Positions 17,525 through 40,208 of a stretch of DNA of 64,000 nucleotides are shown here, in pieces; within the stretch, counting starts at the first letter, position 1; the number at the start of each line of letters is the position of its first letter. The stretch is from an uncultured Candidatus Saccharibacteria bacterium (GTDB lineage Bacteria > Patescibacteriota > Minisyncoccia > Phycocordibacterales > UBA9973). Under the pieces are notes generated by a model. The model made no database searches. It was not told where the DNA came from and saw nothing but the letters and a program-made list of their open reading frames with translations. Position numbers and translations under genes: made by a program. The DNA is taken from assembly GCA_964645245.1 (NCBI GenBank), contig CAZYBS010000002.1, positions 18,161-82,160 on the forward strand. The letters run 5' to 3'.

Positions 17525-18130
17525 ATGTTCCCTGAATATATAATTTATATTGCGATTCCTGTCAGCTTGGCAGCCTATTTTTATTATTTTAAAAATATTT
17601 TTTACGGGCAGACCAAGCCGAATTTAGTTTCTTGGTTTCTTTGGATGTTAGCTCCATTTATCGGAGTATTTTTCCAGCTTAAAGCTGGAGGAGGTCTTGC
17701 TGCCTTACCGGTATTTTTAGCCGGTTTCGGGCCTCTTTTGGTAATACTTGCTTCTCTTTGGAATAAAAATGCTTACTGGAAAATTACCAGATTGGATATA
17801 ACTTGCGGGATACTGGCAATGCTCGCCTTAGTATTTTATATTCTGACTCATAATTTAGGAATATCAGTCCTTTTTGCTATATCAAGCGATGGTTTAGCAG
17901 CTGTCCCGACACTTGTAAAATCTTGGAAATTTCCAGAAACTGAAACAGCGACAGTTTATCTGGCAGGAATTTTCAGCAATACTTTAGGATTACTCATTAT
18001 AAAAAATTGGATTTTTTCCATTTATTCTTTCGGTATTTATTTTATAGTAATGAATATAGCGATAGTATTTTGCATATACCGCAAAAAGATTTTTAAAAGT
18101 GAGCAAGGGGAGTCCTTGCTCAAGTTTTAG
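17525..18130 (+). CDS. Hypothetical integral membrane protein
   Basis: 201 aa with 5-6 predicted TM helices. No recognisable motif. Confidence 0.45.
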   Translation: MFPEYIIYIAIPVSLAAYFYYFKNIFYGQTKPNLVSWFLWMLAPFIGVFFQLKAGGGLAALPVFLAGFGPLLVILASLWNKNAYWKITRLDITCGILAMLALVFYILTHNLGISVLFAISSDGLAAVPTLVKSWKFPETETATVYLAGIFSNTLGLLIIKNWIFSIYSFGIYFIVMNIAIVFCIYRKKIFKSEQGESLLKF

Positions 18131-18135
18131 TAAGC

Positions 18136-18163
18136 TTGTATTTTATCATTAATATGTTATAAT
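18136..18163 (+). promoter_or_regulatory. Candidate sigma70-type promoter TTGTAT-16-TATAAT for the GC-rich gene
   Basis: TTGTAT at 18136-18141 and TATAAT at 18158-18163. Confidence 0.3.
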
Positions 18164-18200
18164 ACTAGAGTAATACGTTCTTTAAAATCTTTACGAAATT

Positions 18201-18244
18201 GCCACAGCAGAAAGTATCTTAATTTTAGGATTCTTTCTGCTGTG
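18201..18244 (+). promoter_or_regulatory. Perfect 14-bp inverted repeat (GCCACAGCAGAAAG / CTTTCTGCTGTGGC) in the leader of the GC-rich gene; a GCCACATGTGGC palindrome follows at ~18271-18282
   Basis: Read directly from the sequence. No U-tract follows, so it is more likely an operator or RNA structure than a terminator. Confidence 0.4.
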
Positions 18245-18305
18245 GCGAAACCCATGTTGGGCTAGCTATACAGCATGCCACATGTGGCAGAAAGGAGGTC
18301 GAGAC

Positions 18306-18929
18306 ATGTCTCGATACCTCGAAGGCACCACTCACCAACTGTGTGAACAACTGCAGGGGGCTGGCTTTAAAGAGAACGAAGTACATGTTCTCGGAGACAG
18401 ATCCCGCCTGGATCGTATTCTTGCCGAAATTCGTACTGGTGTAGTAATCGGTTCGTCGCCGGACTTGGACTCAATCAATCCAGTTCTGGTCGTGGACCGC
18501 ACTAAGGCGCCGGTTTACCCAAGGGCCATGACTGGTGGGCTCGTGCGACCCGATCTTGAGCTCACCGGGCCTGATCGTTTCAGCATCAACCATACGTTGA
18601 CTTTTCCCTTTACGACGTCCGAACCTGCGCTGGGGCAAGAGGTCTACGATAGGTGGATGAAGGACGATACGCCTCAAAGATATATCGACGGGTACGTCTC
18701 CCTGATCGACCTGATCGCGATTCGGGCCAGGGGTCCGATCTTTTACCACCTTCATTTTAGCGGAATGAAGCTGGTCGCCATGAAGTCAGCCGGTAAGTTC
18801 CACGAGAACGGGTCCGAGTTGGTCCGTGTACCATATTTGTACGAGGCAAAGAAATGTGTTCACCGTGGGTGGAGGTGGCTTGGGCACACGTTCACTCAAG
18901 AATACAAAGCGCTTCGTATCGTGACCTAG
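18306..18929 (+). CDS. Hypothetical protein encoded in a GC-rich island (probable start at the second ATG, with AAAGGAGG SD)
   Basis: ORF 18282..18929. The internal ATG at 18306 is preceded by AAAGGAGG-N7. Codon usage is GC-rich, unlike the neighbours. No recognisable family. Confidence 0.55.
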   Translation: MSRYLEGTTHQLCEQLQGAGFKENEVHVLGDRSRLDRILAEIRTGVVIGSSPDLDSINPVLVVDRTKAPVYPRAMTGGLVRPDLELTGPDRFSINHTLTFPFTTSEPALGQEVYDRWMKDDTPQRYIDGYVSLIDLIAIRARGPIFYHLHFSGMKLVAMKSAGKFHENGSELVRVPYLYEAKKCVHRGWRWLGHTFTQEYKALRIVT

Positions 18930-18966
18930 TAGTCTATACTTGTGGGTGTAATAGTTTAAACTCTCA

Positions 18967-19000
18967 GGCCGCGCGGCGTCACTCTGTGACACGCGCGGCC
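18967..19000 (+). terminator. GC-rich hairpin after the island gene (GGCCGCGCG...CGCGCGGCC)
   Basis: 9-bp perfect GC stem extended by GTCAC/GTGAC; only a weak T-tract follows. Confidence 0.4.
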
Positions 19001-19073
19001 TTCTCAATTTAATTAAATCTTTGCCTCGCCCGTAGGTCTATGGCCGAGGGAAATTTTTTGCGCTTTTAAAAAA

Positions 19074-19871
19074 CTATTTTAAAAGAGACCAAACAAGGTA
19101 GCATAAATACAGAAATGCCAGAACTACTAGTAGTTTCCTTAAATATTCCTCTGGGATTTTTTGGACGTGCTTAGTTACGAAGTGCGCACCAATAAAGGTT
19201 CCTACCCATAAAGTTAAAACGTATGGCCAGGCCAAAAGACCAGCAAGCGCAGTCATAATTATAGAAAAAATTGTAGTGGGCACATAAATTATGTTTGTGA
19301 TGCCAATTCCCTCCACCACTTTCATTCTAAGCAAACTAGAATAAGCAATTTTCTGGAAGGTCCCTGCTCCTACACCACTAACATTCGCATAGAGGCCTAA
19401 CCCTAGCATGATACTGCCTATTAAAGGATATTGTTTGCCGTTAATGCGCATCTCTTCTAAATTTCTAGGGGCCTTATTCTTGGACACTAGTATGTGTATT
19501 ACTAGAAGTGAAAGAGCGATGATAAGCAAATAGCTCAAAAGAGTGGCAGAAATTTTTGTAAGAAAAATTGTGCCGATAATTCCACCAATTAAAAAAGGTA
19601 AGCCAAGGAGGATGATTAATTTTTTATTACCCCAAATACTTTTTGGTGAGGCACTTACCGCTCCAACGCTTGACCCCAAACACCCCGCAATGTCAGTGGC
19701 AATCACTGTTGGTAATGGTATTCCTAAAAAAAGAAGAGCAAATTGAATTAGAATTCCTCCACCTCCCAAAACTACAGCATATCCCTCAGCGATTATTCCA
19801 GCTAAAAAGATAACTGGGAGATGCCATAAATGGAAAAAAGGTGGAATAAAATTTATAAAAAAGTTATACAT
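19074..19871 (-). CDS. TauE/SafE (DUF81) family membrane exporter
   Basis: 265 aa polytopic protein with the LAGIIAEGYAVVLGGGGILIQFALLFLGIP motif typical of TauE/SafE. Confidence 0.6.
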   Translation of the reverse strand: MYNFFINFIPPFFHLWHLPVIFLAGIIAEGYAVVLGGGGILIQFALLFLGIPLPTVIATDIAGCLGSSVGAVSASPKSIWGNKKLIILLGLPFLIGGIIGTIFLTKISATLLSYLLIIALSLLVIHILVSKNKAPRNLEEMRINGKQYPLIGSIMLGLGLYANVSGVGAGTFQKIAYSSLLRMKVVEGIGITNIIYVPTTIFSIIMTALAGLLAWPYVLTLWVGTFIGAHFVTKHVQKIPEEYLRKLLVVLAFLYLCYLVWSLLK

Positions 19872-36331: not shown

Positions 36332-36976
36332 TTACTTTTCTTCGGACTCTAGTGGTGGAACGAGTCTATAAGCATCACGATACAGCTTATAGAGTAGCTC
36401 AACCGAGTCGCGCCTATAGTAGATTCCATCCACGTTTGCGCGAATCGCCCCCGGCAGGATCCCGACGGAGCGGAATCCTAGCTTGTGGAACAACTTGAGT
36501 GTCACCGTGTGGAAACGAGCCACAGATACGGTGGCAAGTTCAGCGCCGGATTCCTCAGCGTAGCGATCGAGAATCTTTGTCGCCGTAGTTGCCGATAGAC
36601 GTCCCCTGAAATCCGGGTGGACTACACCTAGCGTAAAATCCACTGAGAGATTCAGAGAATCCGTGCGCAAGAGTGCAGAACCAGCGATATGCCCTTCTGA
36701 CGTTTCAAGCGCGAAAACCTCATGTCCTTCCATCGGAAGGTTGCCGTACCACTCAGGTTCCAGAAGGAACCCGAACGTACCTCGATAGAGTTCCGGGAAT
36801 CCTTTTGCCCATACGTCAGCTAGCGTTTCCGCTGTCTCCCTGCTTACGTTGTTGAGTCGCTTGATTGTAGATCCGCGCCCCAAGGATTGTGGATCGAACG
36901 TGGTCCAATTCCACCGCCCTTCCTCCCATGGTTTTACTGGCGTATTGTACAGTTTAAAGTTTCTTCCCAGTTCCAT
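36332..36976 (-). CDS. GNAT-family acetyltransferase-like protein (GC-rich island)
   Basis: VHPDFRGRLSATTATKIL...FHKLGFRSVG resembles GNAT motif A. The start is assigned to the internal Met (MELGRN...) preceded by AAAGGAGA; the ORF extends to 37045. Confidence 0.5.
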   Translation of the reverse strand: MELGRNFKLYNTPVKPWEEGRWNWTTFDPQSLGRGSTIKRLNNVSRETAETLADVWAKGFPELYRGTFGFLLEPEWYGNLPMEGHEVFALETSEGHIAGSALLRTDSLNLSVDFTLGVVHPDFRGRLSATTATKILDRYAEESGAELATVSVARFHTVTLKLFHKLGFRSVGILPGAIRANVDGIYYRRDSVELLYKLYRDAYRLVPPLESEEK

Positions 36977-37268
36977 AGCTTCTCCTTTCAAAGAACAGAT
37001 TTGTCGTCTCGGAACATCCGAGCATACATGAAAGAACAAAAACACCAGCCGAGAGGGCTGGTGTTTGAGTTGTAAGTTGAGTTTTAGTTTTTTTACAGCG
37101 CAAATATCAGCCTTCTAATGGAAAGCTGGTAATAAGCATTTAATATTGAAGTATTTCTTTGTTGTTGAATATTACTATTCATATTTCGCATACTAGCATG
37201 TTTTGATAAAAAGCGCAAGCGAATTTGTAGAAGTCATAATTCCGCTTATACTATCTACTTCACTCAAT

Positions 37269-37293
37269 TAAAGTACTTTAGTTAAGTAAAGTA
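37269..37293. promoter_or_regulatory. Repeat R2 (TAAAGTACTTTAGTTAAGTAAAGTA), same as the putative operator at 40681..40705
   Basis: 24 of 25 nt are identical to the 40681 copy, and it contains TAAAGTA/TACTTTA half-sites. Confidence 0.45.
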
Positions 37294-37310
37294 ATGGATA
37301 TAAATAATAT

Positions 37311-37493
37311 TTATCTATAGCCCATTAATAAAAGTATAATTAATACACAAACTAATATTATTAATAAGGTCCACAAAAAAGCATTCCAAGGGTCTTCTTC
37401 ATTTAAATATTTTGACCATTTCTTACTTCCATCGATTAATATCAGTATTGGTAGCTGAATACATAAAAAGAAAATTGGTTCAAAAACTCCCAT
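37311..37493 (-). CDS. Small 2-TM membrane protein, cassette copy 2
   Basis: Paralog of 29614..29799 (LPILILIDGSKKWSKYLNEEDP...). Confidence 0.55.
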   Translation of the reverse strand: MGVFEPIFFLCIQLPILILIDGSKKWSKYLNEEDPWNAFLWTLLIILVCVLIILLLMGYR

Positions 37494-37494
37494 G

Positions 37495-37686
37495 TTAGTT
37501 GCACCTTACTGGTGATCTTAGCTTTTCTTTGGCGACCCAAAATTTTTCAATATAAAAACAGTTCACGCATCTTGTTCTTTGCGCTTCGACTTTGCCATAG
37601 ACTCCGTTTACCATCTTGGTTTGGTATTTTTTCATTTTGTGGCTGGTCAATAGGCAGCATTTAATTCTTAAAATTATTTTATTCAT
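37495..37686 (-). CDS. Small 4-Cys protein, cassette copy 2
   Basis: Paralog of 29418..29612 (KMVNGVYGKVEAQRTRCVNC...VRCN). Confidence 0.55.
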   Translation of the reverse strand: MNKIILRIKCCLLTSHKMKKYQTKMVNGVYGKVEAQRTRCVNCFYIEKFWVAKEKLRSPVRCN

Positions 37687-37761
37687 GGCTTTGTAAGTAA
37701 TAAAAATTTTTGGAGGAAGGGAAGGGTGATGTGCCCAACCCTTCCGCCAATGTATCTATCT

Positions 37762-38817
37762 CTATCTACTGGCTGTGATTACCGTCAGGATGCTTTCGCG
37801 CTTACCGCACCGCTGGAGGTTCCTTGCCAGTTCTGTTGCAGCTAGAAAGTTGGCACCCGCAGAGCTTGCTCCGTCGATACCAAAGGTCTTCAGTAGCCGA
37901 ACACCTTCTCTCGCTTCTTTGTCCGTAACGATACGAACTTGTTCTACGCTTGGCAGATGGTCAAGAACAAGCCTCGTCGGATCCCCGACGCCCAAACCTT
38001 CAATACCGATAACCTTTGATACTACTCGCGGGAAGTCGATATTGATGTCGAACCAGTTCTCCGGACTTCTTTGTGGATGGCAGCTGAGCGAAACTATCAT
38101 CCCCGCAGTTTCGTATGCCCGGAGGGCTTTTTCGACAGCTCTCTTTTTGACCTCGTACTTGTCTCTGGCACGCAAGTAGGCATGCCAGAGAGTTAAGGTT
38201 GAACCCACCCCTTCAACGGCTATGATTCGGGTATGAGGATTCACTTCGCGCAACGCCAATCCAATTCCGAAGAGGGTACCACCCGTGCCGACCCCAGCCA
38301 CGAGGTGGCTAGGTGCCCCGAGTCGTTCCACGATAGCCCTCCCGAATGTTCGTTTCTGGATATCGAGGATGACCGGCTGCTCGTGCTGTTCGAGCAACAT
38401 GTATCCTCTCTTCCGGCAGAGCTTTTTTGCCGTGGTGAGGCGACCGGTTCGGCCTTCGCGACGCGGGGTTTCCATAACCACTTCAATACCCATCGTCTTG
38501 AGTTTCTCGACGACGGGCCGACTGGTTTCGACGTATACAACCGCGGTGACCCCGACTCTGACCCCGAGTTCGTCTACGGCAAGTTTTACACCTTGTACGG
38601 TGTTTCCTCCGCCGACAACGACTACGGATCGAGTTGTATCCTTGATCTTCCCGGTGTCAAGGTAGTGCGCTAGCAGGCACTTGCCGATGGAGGTTTTGAC
38701 TCCAGCCGGCAATGTGTCGGCCCGAAAGAGAACAATTTTTTGTCCATGCCTTTTGGTGGTGCACAAAGGGACAGACAAAGCCCTTTCGTACTCTCTCTGT
38801 ACTGTCTCTTTGTACAC
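37762..38817 (-). CDS. PLP-dependent cysteine synthase / CBS-like (fold type II) enzyme, GC-rich; GTG start
   Basis: GVGTGGTLFGIG glycine loop and VVVGGGNTVQG. The start codon is GTG, 5 nt after AAAGGAGG. Confidence 0.6.
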   Translation of the reverse strand: MYKETVQREYERALSVPLCTTKRHGQKIVLFRADTLPAGVKTSIGKCLLAHYLDTGKIKDTTRSVVVVGGGNTVQGVKLAVDELGVRVGVTAVVYVETSRPVVEKLKTMGIEVVMETPRREGRTGRLTTAKKLCRKRGYMLLEQHEQPVILDIQKRTFGRAIVERLGAPSHLVAGVGTGGTLFGIGLALREVNPHTRIIAVEGVGSTLTLWHAYLRARDKYEVKKRAVEKALRAYETAGMIVSLSCHPQRSPENWFDINIDFPRVVSKVIGIEGLGVGDPTRLVLDHLPSVEQVRIVTDKEAREGVRLLKTFGIDGASSAGANFLAATELARNLQRCGKRESILTVITASR

Positions 38818-39047
38818 CTTTGCCTCCTTTCAAAAGATGCTCCGTGGCGGCAATTTTACCCGCCACGGAGCAAGCCGACTCGACGAGACTACCGGACGTG
38901 CATGTGCACGTGCCGGCGCGCCTTGCGGCTTACACGGATGCGCATAAAGAACAATCCTTTCTGAGCTCCTAATAGACAAGAGGTTTCTCGTCCTAGGGCT
39001 CTTGAAATTTTCTTTTGCTTTAAAGAAAACTCGGAAGAGCCCAGCGA
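38818..39047 (-). promoter_or_regulatory. Structured GC-rich leader of the CysK-like gene
   Basis: 11-bp perfect hairpin (38840-38850/38860-38870) plus UCUUUU immediately before the RBS, and a second GC hairpin at 38896-38920. Confidence 0.35.
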
Positions 39048-40208
39048 CTACACATATCTACGATCTACTTTTTCCGGGATACGACTCAAAAACTCATAAT
39101 TATTCTGTTTTATGCTCCTGCAGATTTCTTCCAGTTTTATTTCTTTTCCTTTTTGTTTTCCTAAAATAACAACCTCGTCGCCGGCCTTGATGGTTTTTTT
39201 GCTACCGATGTTCACAAAACAATTTGTCATGTTAATTCCGCCGACCAACGGATATTTAACTCCGCCAATTATTACTTTCCCTCCATTTACAAGCCGAGAG
39301 TCAAGGCCATAGGAGTAACCAGGAAGAAGAATAGCAATTCGAGTTTTCCGTTTGGCAATAAACTTTCTTCGATAAAATATGCCCTCACCCTTTTCAAGCT
39401 CTTTAATGCAGGCAATTATGGTTTTGAAAGAAACTACAGGAAACAGGTCTATTGTGCTTTTTCGTCTAGCTTCTAGTGAGGGATAAAAGCCAAAAAGTGA
39501 AATGCCAAGACGCACCATATCGAGAAGGGATTCCGAGAAAAGAAAAGCAGCTTCACTTGAAGCGATGCTCCATAAAGGAATTTTGATTTTCTCTTTTTGA
39601 CAACTTTCTTTAATCGCTATGAAGCGTTTAAATTGGATCTTGTCGAACTTTTTTTCTTCTGTAAAACTACTCAAGACACCTTCGATTTTTATGTTTTTCG
39701 ACTGCGAAACAGCACGTATAAATTTCAAAGCATCTTGATATGGCACACCAAGACGTCCTAAGCCAGTATCAATTTTTATCCACACTCCGCTTCTCATCTT
39801 GAGTTTTCTAGATACACTCTCAAAATTTCTAAGCATGGTATAGGTAAAAATAGTAGGATTAATTTGATTTTTTACGAGCTTTTCCCCATCTTCAAAACTA
39901 TATATTCCGAGGTTCACGATTGGCTTTGTAATTCCACCTTTTCTTAAAGTTATTGCTTCCTTTATTCCCACAACACCAAATACATCTATATATTTTTGAA
40001 GGGTATTGGACACACCCAAAACCCCCAAGCCATATGCATTTGCTTTCAACACCGCCATTATTTTACTTGGTTTGGTTATTCGTTTCATTTGGGCAATGTT
40101 TTTCAACAGATTTGCCTTATTAATTTCTATCCAAACTAATGGTTTTTTAATTTTTCTTTCACTATTTACAATTCTCATTTTTTTATTTTTTAAATTTCTA
40201 ATAAACAA
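39048..40208 (-). CDS. alr: Alanine racemase
   Basis: AVLKANAYGLGV PLP-Lys motif; 386 aa. Confidence 0.85.
   Translation of the reverse strand: MFIRNLKNKKMRIVNSERKIKKPLVWIEINKANLLKNIAQMKRITKPSKIMAVLKANAYGLGVLGVSNTLQKYIDVFGVVGIKEAITLRKGGITKPIVNLGIYSFEDGEKLVKNQINPTIFTYTMLRNFESVSRKLKMRSGVWIKIDTGLGRLGVPYQDALKFIRAVSQSKNIKIEGVLSSFTEEKKFDKIQFKRFIAIKESCQKEKIKIPLWSIASSEAAFLFSESLLDMVRLGISLFGFYPSLEARRKSTIDLFPVVSFKTIIACIKELEKGEGIFYRRKFIAKRKTRIAILLPGYSYGLDSRLVNGGKVIIGGVKYPLVGGINMTNCFVNIGSKKTIKAGDEVVILGKQKGKEIKLEEICRSIKQNNYEFLSRIPEKVDRRYV

Follow-up and report, generated by a model that had tools for sequence, protein, structure and literature searches.

A 64,000-nucleotide stretch of DNA from an uncultured Candidatus Saccharibacteria bacterium (contig CAZYBS010000002.1 of assembly GCA_964645245.1; hereafter the window) carries on its minus strand a TrpR-like gene (40662-40255), the alanine racemase gene alr (to 39048), a 230-nt spacer (39047-38818) and a gene for a divergent CysK-like enzyme dependent on pyridoxal phosphate (PLP), here called PALP. 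The spacer, which a preliminary description had read as a structured leader and possible attenuator or riboswitch-like element of the CysK-like gene, holds three conserved parts: a hairpin closing the alr message (H1), an 18-codon peptide gene, hereafter the small open reading frame (sORF), and a terminator-like hairpin (H5). The elements of the locus that matter for what follows are these:

40208/40178-39048, minus strand: alr (alanine racemase) gene; gene callers choose an ATG start giving 376 aa.
39048-39050, minus strand: stop codon TAG of alr (from the list of open reading frames (ORFs) and Pfam Ala_racemase_N/C).
38996-39042, minus strand: H1, a long hairpin after the alr stop with a GC-rich base (GGGCUCUU/AAGAGCCC), an AU-rich upper stem and no U-tract (from folding).
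38955-38960, minus strand: Shine-Dalgarno (SD) sequence AAAGGA of the sORF, 9 nt before its ATG (from sequence comparison).
38889-38945, minus strand: sORF, unannotated, 18 codons plus TAG, encoding the peptide MRIRVSRKARRHVHMHVR; same architecture in 18/18 family loci.
38892-38916, minus strand: CCGGCACGTGCACATGCACGTCCGG, formerly described as a second GC hairpin; codons 10-18 of the sORF (R-R-H-V-H-M-H-V-R, from codon reading).
38838-38872, minus strand: H5, a terminator-like hairpin of 13 perfect pairs with a 9-nt loop, dG -27.7 kcal/mol (from folding; 18/18 loci; covariation).
38831-38837, minus strand: U-tract UCUUUUG after H5, with 5 U in 8 nt; also in all three close relatives.
38823-38830, minus strand: SD sequence AAAGGAGG of the PALP gene (read from the sequence).
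37762-38817, minus strand: PALP gene, 351 aa, GTG start, divergent CysK-like PLP enzyme (Pfam PF00291).

Our comparison set comprised 18 independent loci encoding members of the PALP subfamily. The sORF at 38945-38889 was recognised because, in an alignment with the three closest loci (74-79% protein identity), part of the supposed leader varied mainly at every third base. It lies directly upstream of PALP and on the same strand in all 18 loci, with PALP identity falling to 50%, and third codon positions change across the loci while the amino acids are kept. The search for a leader peptide that the preliminary description had proposed thereby ended in a strongly conserved short ORF just upstream of H5. 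SD sequences in the family are mostly AAGGAGG, 5-9 nt before the sORF start, with AAGGAGG at 5-8 nt in the more distant loci. The sORFs span 16-31 codons, the longest being an expanded version of 31 residues at locus L100, and their products follow the consensus MxIRVNGKxRxHxHVHxH, in which the first histidine is always residue 12 (further examples are MKVRVNGKSRKHVHCHVHRH, MKVKVNGKCRTHCHVHCHVHTR, MKIRVGKNVRQHVHVHQH, MRIRINGQSQIHCHAHSHS and MTVTVNGGQRHTHVHSH). The 11 N-terminal residues and their length are conserved, and in the C-terminal half no residue type other than histidine is invariant. Each sORF has 3-9 histidine codons (89% CAC overall), which alternate with other residues throughout instead of forming runs. 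The residues after the last histidine vary (none, R, K, SR, TK, RH, A and others), and the stop codon may be TAG, TAA or TGA. Further features of the peptides are an N-terminus of alternating basic and hydrophobic residues, a frequent N-G turn, and often cysteine alongside the alternating histidines.

The sORFs also stand out in base composition. Their GC content at third codon positions (GC3) ranges from 0.58 to 1.0 across loci, compared with 0.20-0.46 in the adjacent alr genes, and the ratio of CAC to CAT, which stands at 78:67 in the PALP genes of these loci, is 66:8 in the sORFs (Fisher p = 7e-8). The window shows a sharp composition step, from alr (GC 0.37, GC3 0.33) to the sORF (GC3 0.89) and PALP (GC 0.54, GC3 0.57). 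Recent horizontal transfer was considered as the source of this GC-rich island and is unlikely, with GC3 higher in the sORF than in alr at 15/15 comparable loci and higher in PALP than in alr at 12/15. Among 62 crudely called genes of the window PALP ranks second in GC3 and the gene for ribosomal protein L27 (54769-55041) third; the high GC3 of the latter is a faint hint that GC3 bias is linked to expression in this AT-rich genome. With its SD sequence and codon usage, the sORF is probably well translated.

Gene callers did not annotate the sORF at any of the 18 loci. At L093 (4758-4988) an automated call placed a 76-aa ORF in another frame across sORF and hairpins, which is wrong, and the PALP homologues P0006 and P0026 carry false N-terminal extensions (30 and ~60 residues) that run through the leader. 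Exact look-up of nine versions of the peptide in a collection of 15 billion protein sequences returned none of them, Pfam and NCBIfam scans of four sORF peptides at E<=10 gave no match, and the literature searched held nothing on this peptide family. The lack of a Pfam or NCBIfam match argues against membership in the ribosomal protein L36 family, with which the shared MKVR start extends over just 4-5 residues, and likewise against a ThiS/CysO or His-leader family member. The idea that the sORF is a remnant of thiS or cysO finds no support, and no contradiction, at L005 and L027, the ordinary CysK loci most similar to PALP, where such a neighbour is absent. A search with the peptide pattern over 697 kb on both strands (the window and ~80 ordinary CysK loci) matched at the sORF sites alone, which measures specificity and is no independent discovery, since the pattern was derived from the same loci.

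The enzyme encoded next to the sORF belongs to a subfamily of 29 proteins that share 50-100% identity over their full length and are followed in the search by ordinary cysteine synthases at ~27% identity. Named source records of the subfamily are metagenome-assembled genomes of Candidatus Magasanikbacteria, Parcubacteria and 'Saccharibacteria'. An N-terminus of the form MY.E..Q.EY.RA..PL is conserved in the 29 homologues, which places the start of PALP at the GTG at 38817. All members of the subfamily keep the PLP lysine (K41), the GNT loop and the GTGGT motif. An AlphaFold (AF2) model of PALP (pLDDT 93.4) matches structures of CysK/O-acetylserine sulfhydrylase at TM ~0.7 and ~21% identity, and the protein falls under every NCBIfam cut-off (cysKM, 75.5 bits vs 344; cysK, 75.2 vs 351).

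Between the sORF stop and the PALP start, an H5-type hairpin of 11-19 pairs (dG -16 to -33 kcal/mol) is present in 18/18 loci. Its sequence varies while the pairing is kept, with compensatory double changes at 8/14 pairs in the eight alignable loci, and nothing besides GC-richness is conserved in the sequence. The arms of H5 in the window (38872-38860 and 38850-38838, loop GUAAAAUUG) begin 16 nt after the sORF stop and end 20 nt before the GTG. The hairpin and U-tract had been quoted correctly in the preliminary description, which counted 11 pairs instead of 13. Perfect hairpins with stems of at least 9 bp are few in the 64-kb window (13 in total). With its GC-rich 13-bp stem, short loop and U-tract, H5 has the shape of an intrinsic terminator in this lineage, and transcript release is predicted there. 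Thirteen loci have 10-26 nt from sORF stop to stem; in the other five, additional hairpins lengthen this distance to 70-92 nt, and no locus has less than 10 nt. About 10 nt corresponds to the leading edge of a terminating ribosome, and H5-type stems begin approximately just outside it. The five loci with long distances are L093 (4855-4935), L002, L035, L098 and L101, which carry one or two extra strong hairpins between sORF stop and H5; the extra segment of L093 is a clean 65-nt insertion relative to the window. Loci lacking a U-tract have CA-rich, G-poor tails after the hairpin instead. Such tails extend over 20-45 nt at L002, L003, L035, L098, L101 and L102 (for example CACACAAC) and resemble an unstructured translation enhancer or a Rho-loading sequence.

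The preliminary description had itself named a case that would overturn its reading, namely that the hairpin before the GTG is simply a distant terminator of alr. This does not hold: H5 is not the alr terminator, since alr has a conserved hairpin of its own after its stop codon, H1, and a probably translated ORF separates H1 from H5. H1 is conserved in 16 loci, with compensatory changes at 7/12 pairs. A covariance model of H1 matched alr-sORF junctions alone in ~300 kb, and H1 is absent at L099, whose upstream gene is not alr. We therefore assign H1 to alr, as a likely 3' end, processing or stability element of that gene. The sORF, hairpin and PALP are intact at L099 although both alr upstream and H1 are missing, which indicates that sORF, H5 and PALP travel as a unit. 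A candidate pairing of GGGCUCAG, before the sORF SD, with the 3' arm of H1 was rejected, as there is no covariation at L102, whose H1 arms differ.

The second GC hairpin of the preliminary description, CCGGCACGTGCACATGCACGTCCGG, is present at 38916-38892; it is, however, coding sequence of the sORF, and its pairing is incidental. The histidine codon CAC and the valine codon GTG are reverse complements, so that a sequence encoding H-V-H-V is self-complementary. At L093 and L095 the sORF encodes H-L-H-L-H (CAC CTG CAC CTC CAC); the palindrome is lost there and H-x-H-x-H is kept, which argues for selection on the peptide and not on the hairpin.

Neither known leader families nor alternative folds were found in the spacer. 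Rfam 15 at gathering score gave no relevant family in the 64-kb window, in agreement with the earlier failure to see S-box or T-box consensus elements, and in 17 related loci returned rRNA and tRNA only. The suggested Infernal/Rfam scan, run at E<=10 over 38600-39250, yielded chance-level matches to miRNA, snoRNA and sRNA families and nothing relevant. For antitermination, RNA was folded from the sORF start to the terminator loop, and the stabilisation of 5'-arm/upstream pairing was compared with that in 100 dinucleotide shuffles of the upstream part. In none of the 18 loci did the 5' arm pair better with upstream RNA than with the shuffles (z -1.25 to +1.77, most values positive), so the mutually exclusive antiterminator for which folding had been suggested was not found in any of them. 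Given the absence of a competing fold and the variable stop-to-stem spacing of 10-92 nt, a stalled or terminating ribosome would not alter the fold of H5, and classical attenuation and a riboswitch expression platform are unsupported. The spacer contains independent simple hairpins only, with no conserved multi-helix core, junction or loop sequence, and its middle region evolves as coding sequence. The alr-PALP spacer is not a riboswitch leader.

The position of a terminator hairpin directly before a ribosome-binding site had been taken as typical of regulated termination. A promoter scan of the minus strand matched a sigma70-like site only at 40697-40669, upstream of the TrpR-like gene, and none between alr and PALP; an internal promoter at TAAAAT in the H5 loop was rejected, as this motif is not conserved in relatives and has no -35 element at a workable spacing. 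Two hairpins with T-tracts share the layout of H5, one preceding alr (40237-40210) and one preceding a GNAT gene (37066-37040): both are GC-rich and lie 2-30 nt before the alr and GNAT-like starts, with no room for a promoter. The row from the TrpR-like gene through alr, sORF and PALP to the GNAT gene looks like one operon with partial terminators as punctuation. Long hairpins adjoining SD sequences also occur elsewhere in the window. These two hairpins, the single promoter match and the SD-adjacent hairpins together indicate that a terminator abutting a ribosome-binding site is a general feature of a punctuated operon here. In this genome, such geometry alone is not diagnostic of regulation.

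Our leading explanation, which we hold tentatively, takes the sORF for a micropeptide gene that has a terminator or stabiliser hairpin to itself; PALP would be expressed by read-through, and the peptide may serve the enzyme as substrate, scaffold or ligand. Transcription would arrive from upstream, the sigma70-like site lying before the TrpR-like gene; most transcripts would stop at H5, or be trimmed back to it and protected, giving an abundant short peptide mRNA, and a minor read-through fraction would allow expression of the CysK-like PLP enzyme. Translation of the sORF, partial termination at H5 and the tie between peptide and enzyme are what we infer here. If the peptide is the enzyme's dedicated partner, most plausibly a substrate, scaffold or ligand, we propose that H5 would set a high peptide-to-enzyme ratio, as in the mccA-terminator-mccB arrangement. 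The strict co-occurrence of the sORF upstream of one enzyme family (18/18), with a hairpin between the two genes, is the pattern sought in a module of peptide and modifying enzyme. An amphipathic N-terminal pattern and a fixed N-terminal length would not be expected of a mere run of regulatory codons, and the peptide features would be more in keeping with a product that forms strands and possibly binds metal than with a passive series of such codons.

Several observations weigh against this micropeptide explanation. No transporter, protease, immunity or recognition-domain gene accompanies the sORF-PALP pair in the 18 loci, where the downstream neighbours vary, and the literature searched yielded no PLP-dependent CysK-type enzyme acting on a ribosomal peptide. 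A short basic ORF with a C-terminal histidine cluster followed by a terminator also resembles hisL. The U-tract is present after the H5-type hairpin in just 8/18 loci and missing in 10/18, so that H5 may not terminate everywhere, and the high GC3 could serve RNA structure instead of expression.

A more specific version of the micropeptide explanation is speculative, and we lend it little credence: a minimal two-gene peptide-modification pathway confined to bacteria of the candidate phyla radiation (CPR). The aminoacrylate of the enzyme would alkylate the imidazoles, and any thiol, of the HxHxH peptide in a beta-replacement like that of pyrazolyl-alanine synthesis or of CysM on CysO. The product could be a poly-chelating peptide of the histidinoalanine/lanthionine type, possibly a metallophore or cofactor precursor, with the hairpin setting the substrate-to-enzyme ratio. 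CysM, a member of the CysK family, works with a nucleophile carried on a protein, and N-heterocycles can serve as nucleophiles for CysK-type enzymes; by analogy, alkylation of histidine or cysteine in the peptide is chemically conceivable.

Two forms of control through the sORF compete with the micropeptide explanation, and taken together they are unlikely, if still deserving of serious weight. The first, rather improbable on its own, is leader-peptide attenuation of the his-operon type, in which ribosome speed over the 3-9 histidine codons would decide on termination at H5 before PALP. The layout in the window and its close relatives is indeed hisL-like (an ORF which in the family measures 16-31 codons, with a basic N-terminus and C-terminal histidine cluster, then stop, hairpin and U-tract), the SD of the sORF is strong, and histidine is the sole residue type kept throughout the C-terminal half. 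Against this stand the lack of an antiterminator in 18/18 loci, the wide range of stop-to-stem spacing (10-92 nt), the U-tract missing from 10/18 loci, the alternation of histidine codons without a run, and an N-terminus conserved in its 11 residues and its length. Moreover, PALP is CysK-like with no known link to histidine synthesis, the gene row contains no histidine-pathway gene, and no Rfam leader family matches at E<=10.

The second form, which we consider improbable as well and set at a lower level still, is a nascent-peptide sensor of the TnaC/SpeFL type, where the ribosome would stall on a small molecule or metal and thereby control PALP, for example by blocking Rho loading on a C-rich, G-poor tract after H5. 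Conservation of the peptide beyond codon type and its fixed length are consistent with such a sensor, as are the CA-rich, G-poor tails of the U-tract-free loci, and TnaC and SpeFL both precede inducible PLP enzymes. However, known arrest peptides need a precise C-terminal context, whereas here the residues after the last histidine and the stop codon vary. What is conserved is a pattern, with basic and hydrophobic residues in alternation, and this favours a peptide that folds or forms a strand over one making tunnel contacts. The C-rich tracts are just 20-45 nt long.

Ordinary operon punctuation, in which a compact genome uses H5 and H1 as generic terminators or stabilisers and the sORF is fortuitous or non-functional, is very improbable. 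The two other T-tract hairpins of the row, which abut the next gene likewise, and the long SD-adjacent hairpins elsewhere in the window speak for it; ORF, frame, SD and peptide pattern are nevertheless kept in 18/18 loci over ~50% protein divergence and occur nowhere else in the searched sequence, selection on the sORF at the codon level is strong, and H5 follows the sORF while alr has its own hairpin. Hardly credible is a novel structured cis-regulatory RNA (riboswitch or protein-binding leader) built of H1 to H5 with the ORF incidental: despite a spacer that is the most structured of the window and covariation in H1 and H5, no junction or loop sequence is conserved among the simple, independent hairpins, H1 goes with alr and is lacking at L099, H5 conserves nothing but GC-richness, the region between H1 and H5 evolves as coding sequence, and neither an Rfam match nor an alternative fold was found.

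Two further hairpins were seen at the locus:

38974-38993, minus strand: H2, a short 8-bp hairpin GGACGAGA-AACC-UCUUGUCU (from folding); relatives have a variable extra hairpin here.
38757-38818, minus strand: H6, a hairpin of 17 pairs sequestering the PALP GTG, dG -30.6 kcal/mol, z -6.7; in this genome only.

H6 opens with the GTG start codon itself, which pairs with codons 15-21. L093-L095, which have no H6, use ATG starts and fold weakly there (-7 to -12), and several substitutions in the window genome improve the pairing and alter amino acids (..PLCTTK vs ..PLHTIE). Being present in this genome alone, H6 was rejected as a conserved regulator; it may be a lineage-specific translational brake. 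Overall, a 321-nt region of the locus folds at z = -8.9 relative to dinucleotide shuffles, and among the 30 intergenic strand-regions of the window none is more structured than the spacer (38818-39047, minus strand; z -7.9).

Genes downstream of PALP vary across loci (GNAT, ParB_N, NUDIX, DHO_dh, Pterin_4a and others). The window has a 716-nt AT-rich stretch there (37046-37761, GC 0.26-0.37), between PALP and the GC-rich GNAT-like gene (36332-37045), with only two small ORFs of 60 aa (probably membrane) and 63 aa; since L093 has neither this segment nor the GNAT gene, it looks like a lineage-specific insertion. At L004 (5654-7456; Magasanikbacteria) a 16S rRNA gene begins ~580 nt downstream of PALP and contains an insertion, as it spans 1803 nt vs a model of 1533 positions. 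Long tRNA genes (88-90 nt) lie just downstream of PALP at L003 (5402-5491) and L035 (5232-5319). Elsewhere in the window, the gene with the highest GC3 is 18282-18929 on the plus strand, which encodes 215 aa with no Pfam match and sits between very structured spacers (region 18080-19090, with no Rfam match around the gene). Upstream of it are a terminator, a TATAAT-like box, a 22-pair hairpin (~18199-18248) and then the SD sequence GAAAGGAGG (z -7.0), and downstream a 16-pair GC hairpin (z -5.0). The gene may encode a highly expressed protein specific to this lineage, with the hairpins as stabilisers.

Judged from sequence comparison, the peptide-hairpin-enzyme unit is a real, so far undescribed small-gene module, and it occupies less than 1.3 kb. 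In the tiny genomes of CPR bacteria many genes have no known function, and standard annotation misses genes this short. The strict partnership of the micropeptide and the CysK-like enzyme over ~50% protein divergence points to an unrecognised piece of CPR metabolism, in which the peptide might act as substrate or scaffold, as a metal-binding partner, or in a new peptide-based control of a PLP enzyme. The locus also illustrates that GC hairpins of 'riboswitch-like' appearance can arise from repeated His/Val codons in a hidden gene.

Among known systems, hisL shares with the sORF a short reading frame (16-31 codons here) with basic N-terminus and C-terminal histidine cluster, and a GC-rich hairpin with U-tract before an enzyme gene. 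It differs in that the histidines of the sORF alternate (HxHxH), no antiterminator or anti-antiterminator helix is present, N-terminus and length are conserved, PALP is not a histidine-biosynthesis gene and no Rfam leader model matches. TnaC-tnaA and SpeFL-speF likewise combine a conserved upstream peptide (~20-34 residues) with an inducible PLP enzyme, and SpeFL carries a His/Arg-rich sensor motif, HIRRxxH. Both act through Rho-dependent termination and need invariant C-terminal residues, whereas the C-terminus and stop codon of the sORF vary and a stable hairpin follows it.

Closer to the enzyme itself is CysO-CysM of Mycobacterium tuberculosis, where a small polypeptide is encoded beside a CysK-family enzyme that uses it as nucleophile carrier. 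ThiS/CysO-type proteins have a first strand and turn similar to the N-terminus of the sORF peptide (MKV/I-x-V-NG-K). CysO, however, has ~90 residues compared with 16-31, and the sORF peptide has neither a beta-grasp fold nor a C-terminal Gly-Gly nor a Pfam ThiS match at E<=10; the ordinary CysK loci inspected have no such small-ORF neighbour. The structural matches of PALP include CysK-fold structures with bound peptides (PDB 3tbh, 3t4p and 5xoq), and complexes of CysK with the serine acetyltransferase tail, CdiA-CT or a transcription-factor peptide place peptide tails in the active-site cleft, a precedent for a peptide ligand. Peptides bound by CysK need a C-terminal Ile, whereas the sORF peptides end in R, K, H, S or A and their C-termini are not conserved.

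The closest parallel in gene arrangement is the microcin C (mcc) operon, in which the tiny mccA ORF with its strong ribosome-binding site lies directly upstream of the enzyme that uses the peptide. Through an intrinsic terminator between mccA and mccB, the short peptide mRNA is abundant there and the read-through transcript minor (PMC4231749). Upstream RNA weakens that terminator and ribosome binding restores it (PMC4231749); no such upstream interference is detectable at the sORF loci. MccB is a ThiF-like adenylyltransferase and the enzyme here a CysK-like PLP enzyme, genes for export, immunity or processing are lacking beside sORF-PALP, and peptide modification is hypothetical in the present case. 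The likeness, read here from sequence alone, consists in the succession of tiny ORF, terminator-like hairpin and enzyme. This architecture is known. No counterpart was found in the libraries, protein collection and literature searched for the peptide family, for its association with a CysK-like PLP enzyme or for its confinement to candidate-phyla bacteria, and these are what is new here.

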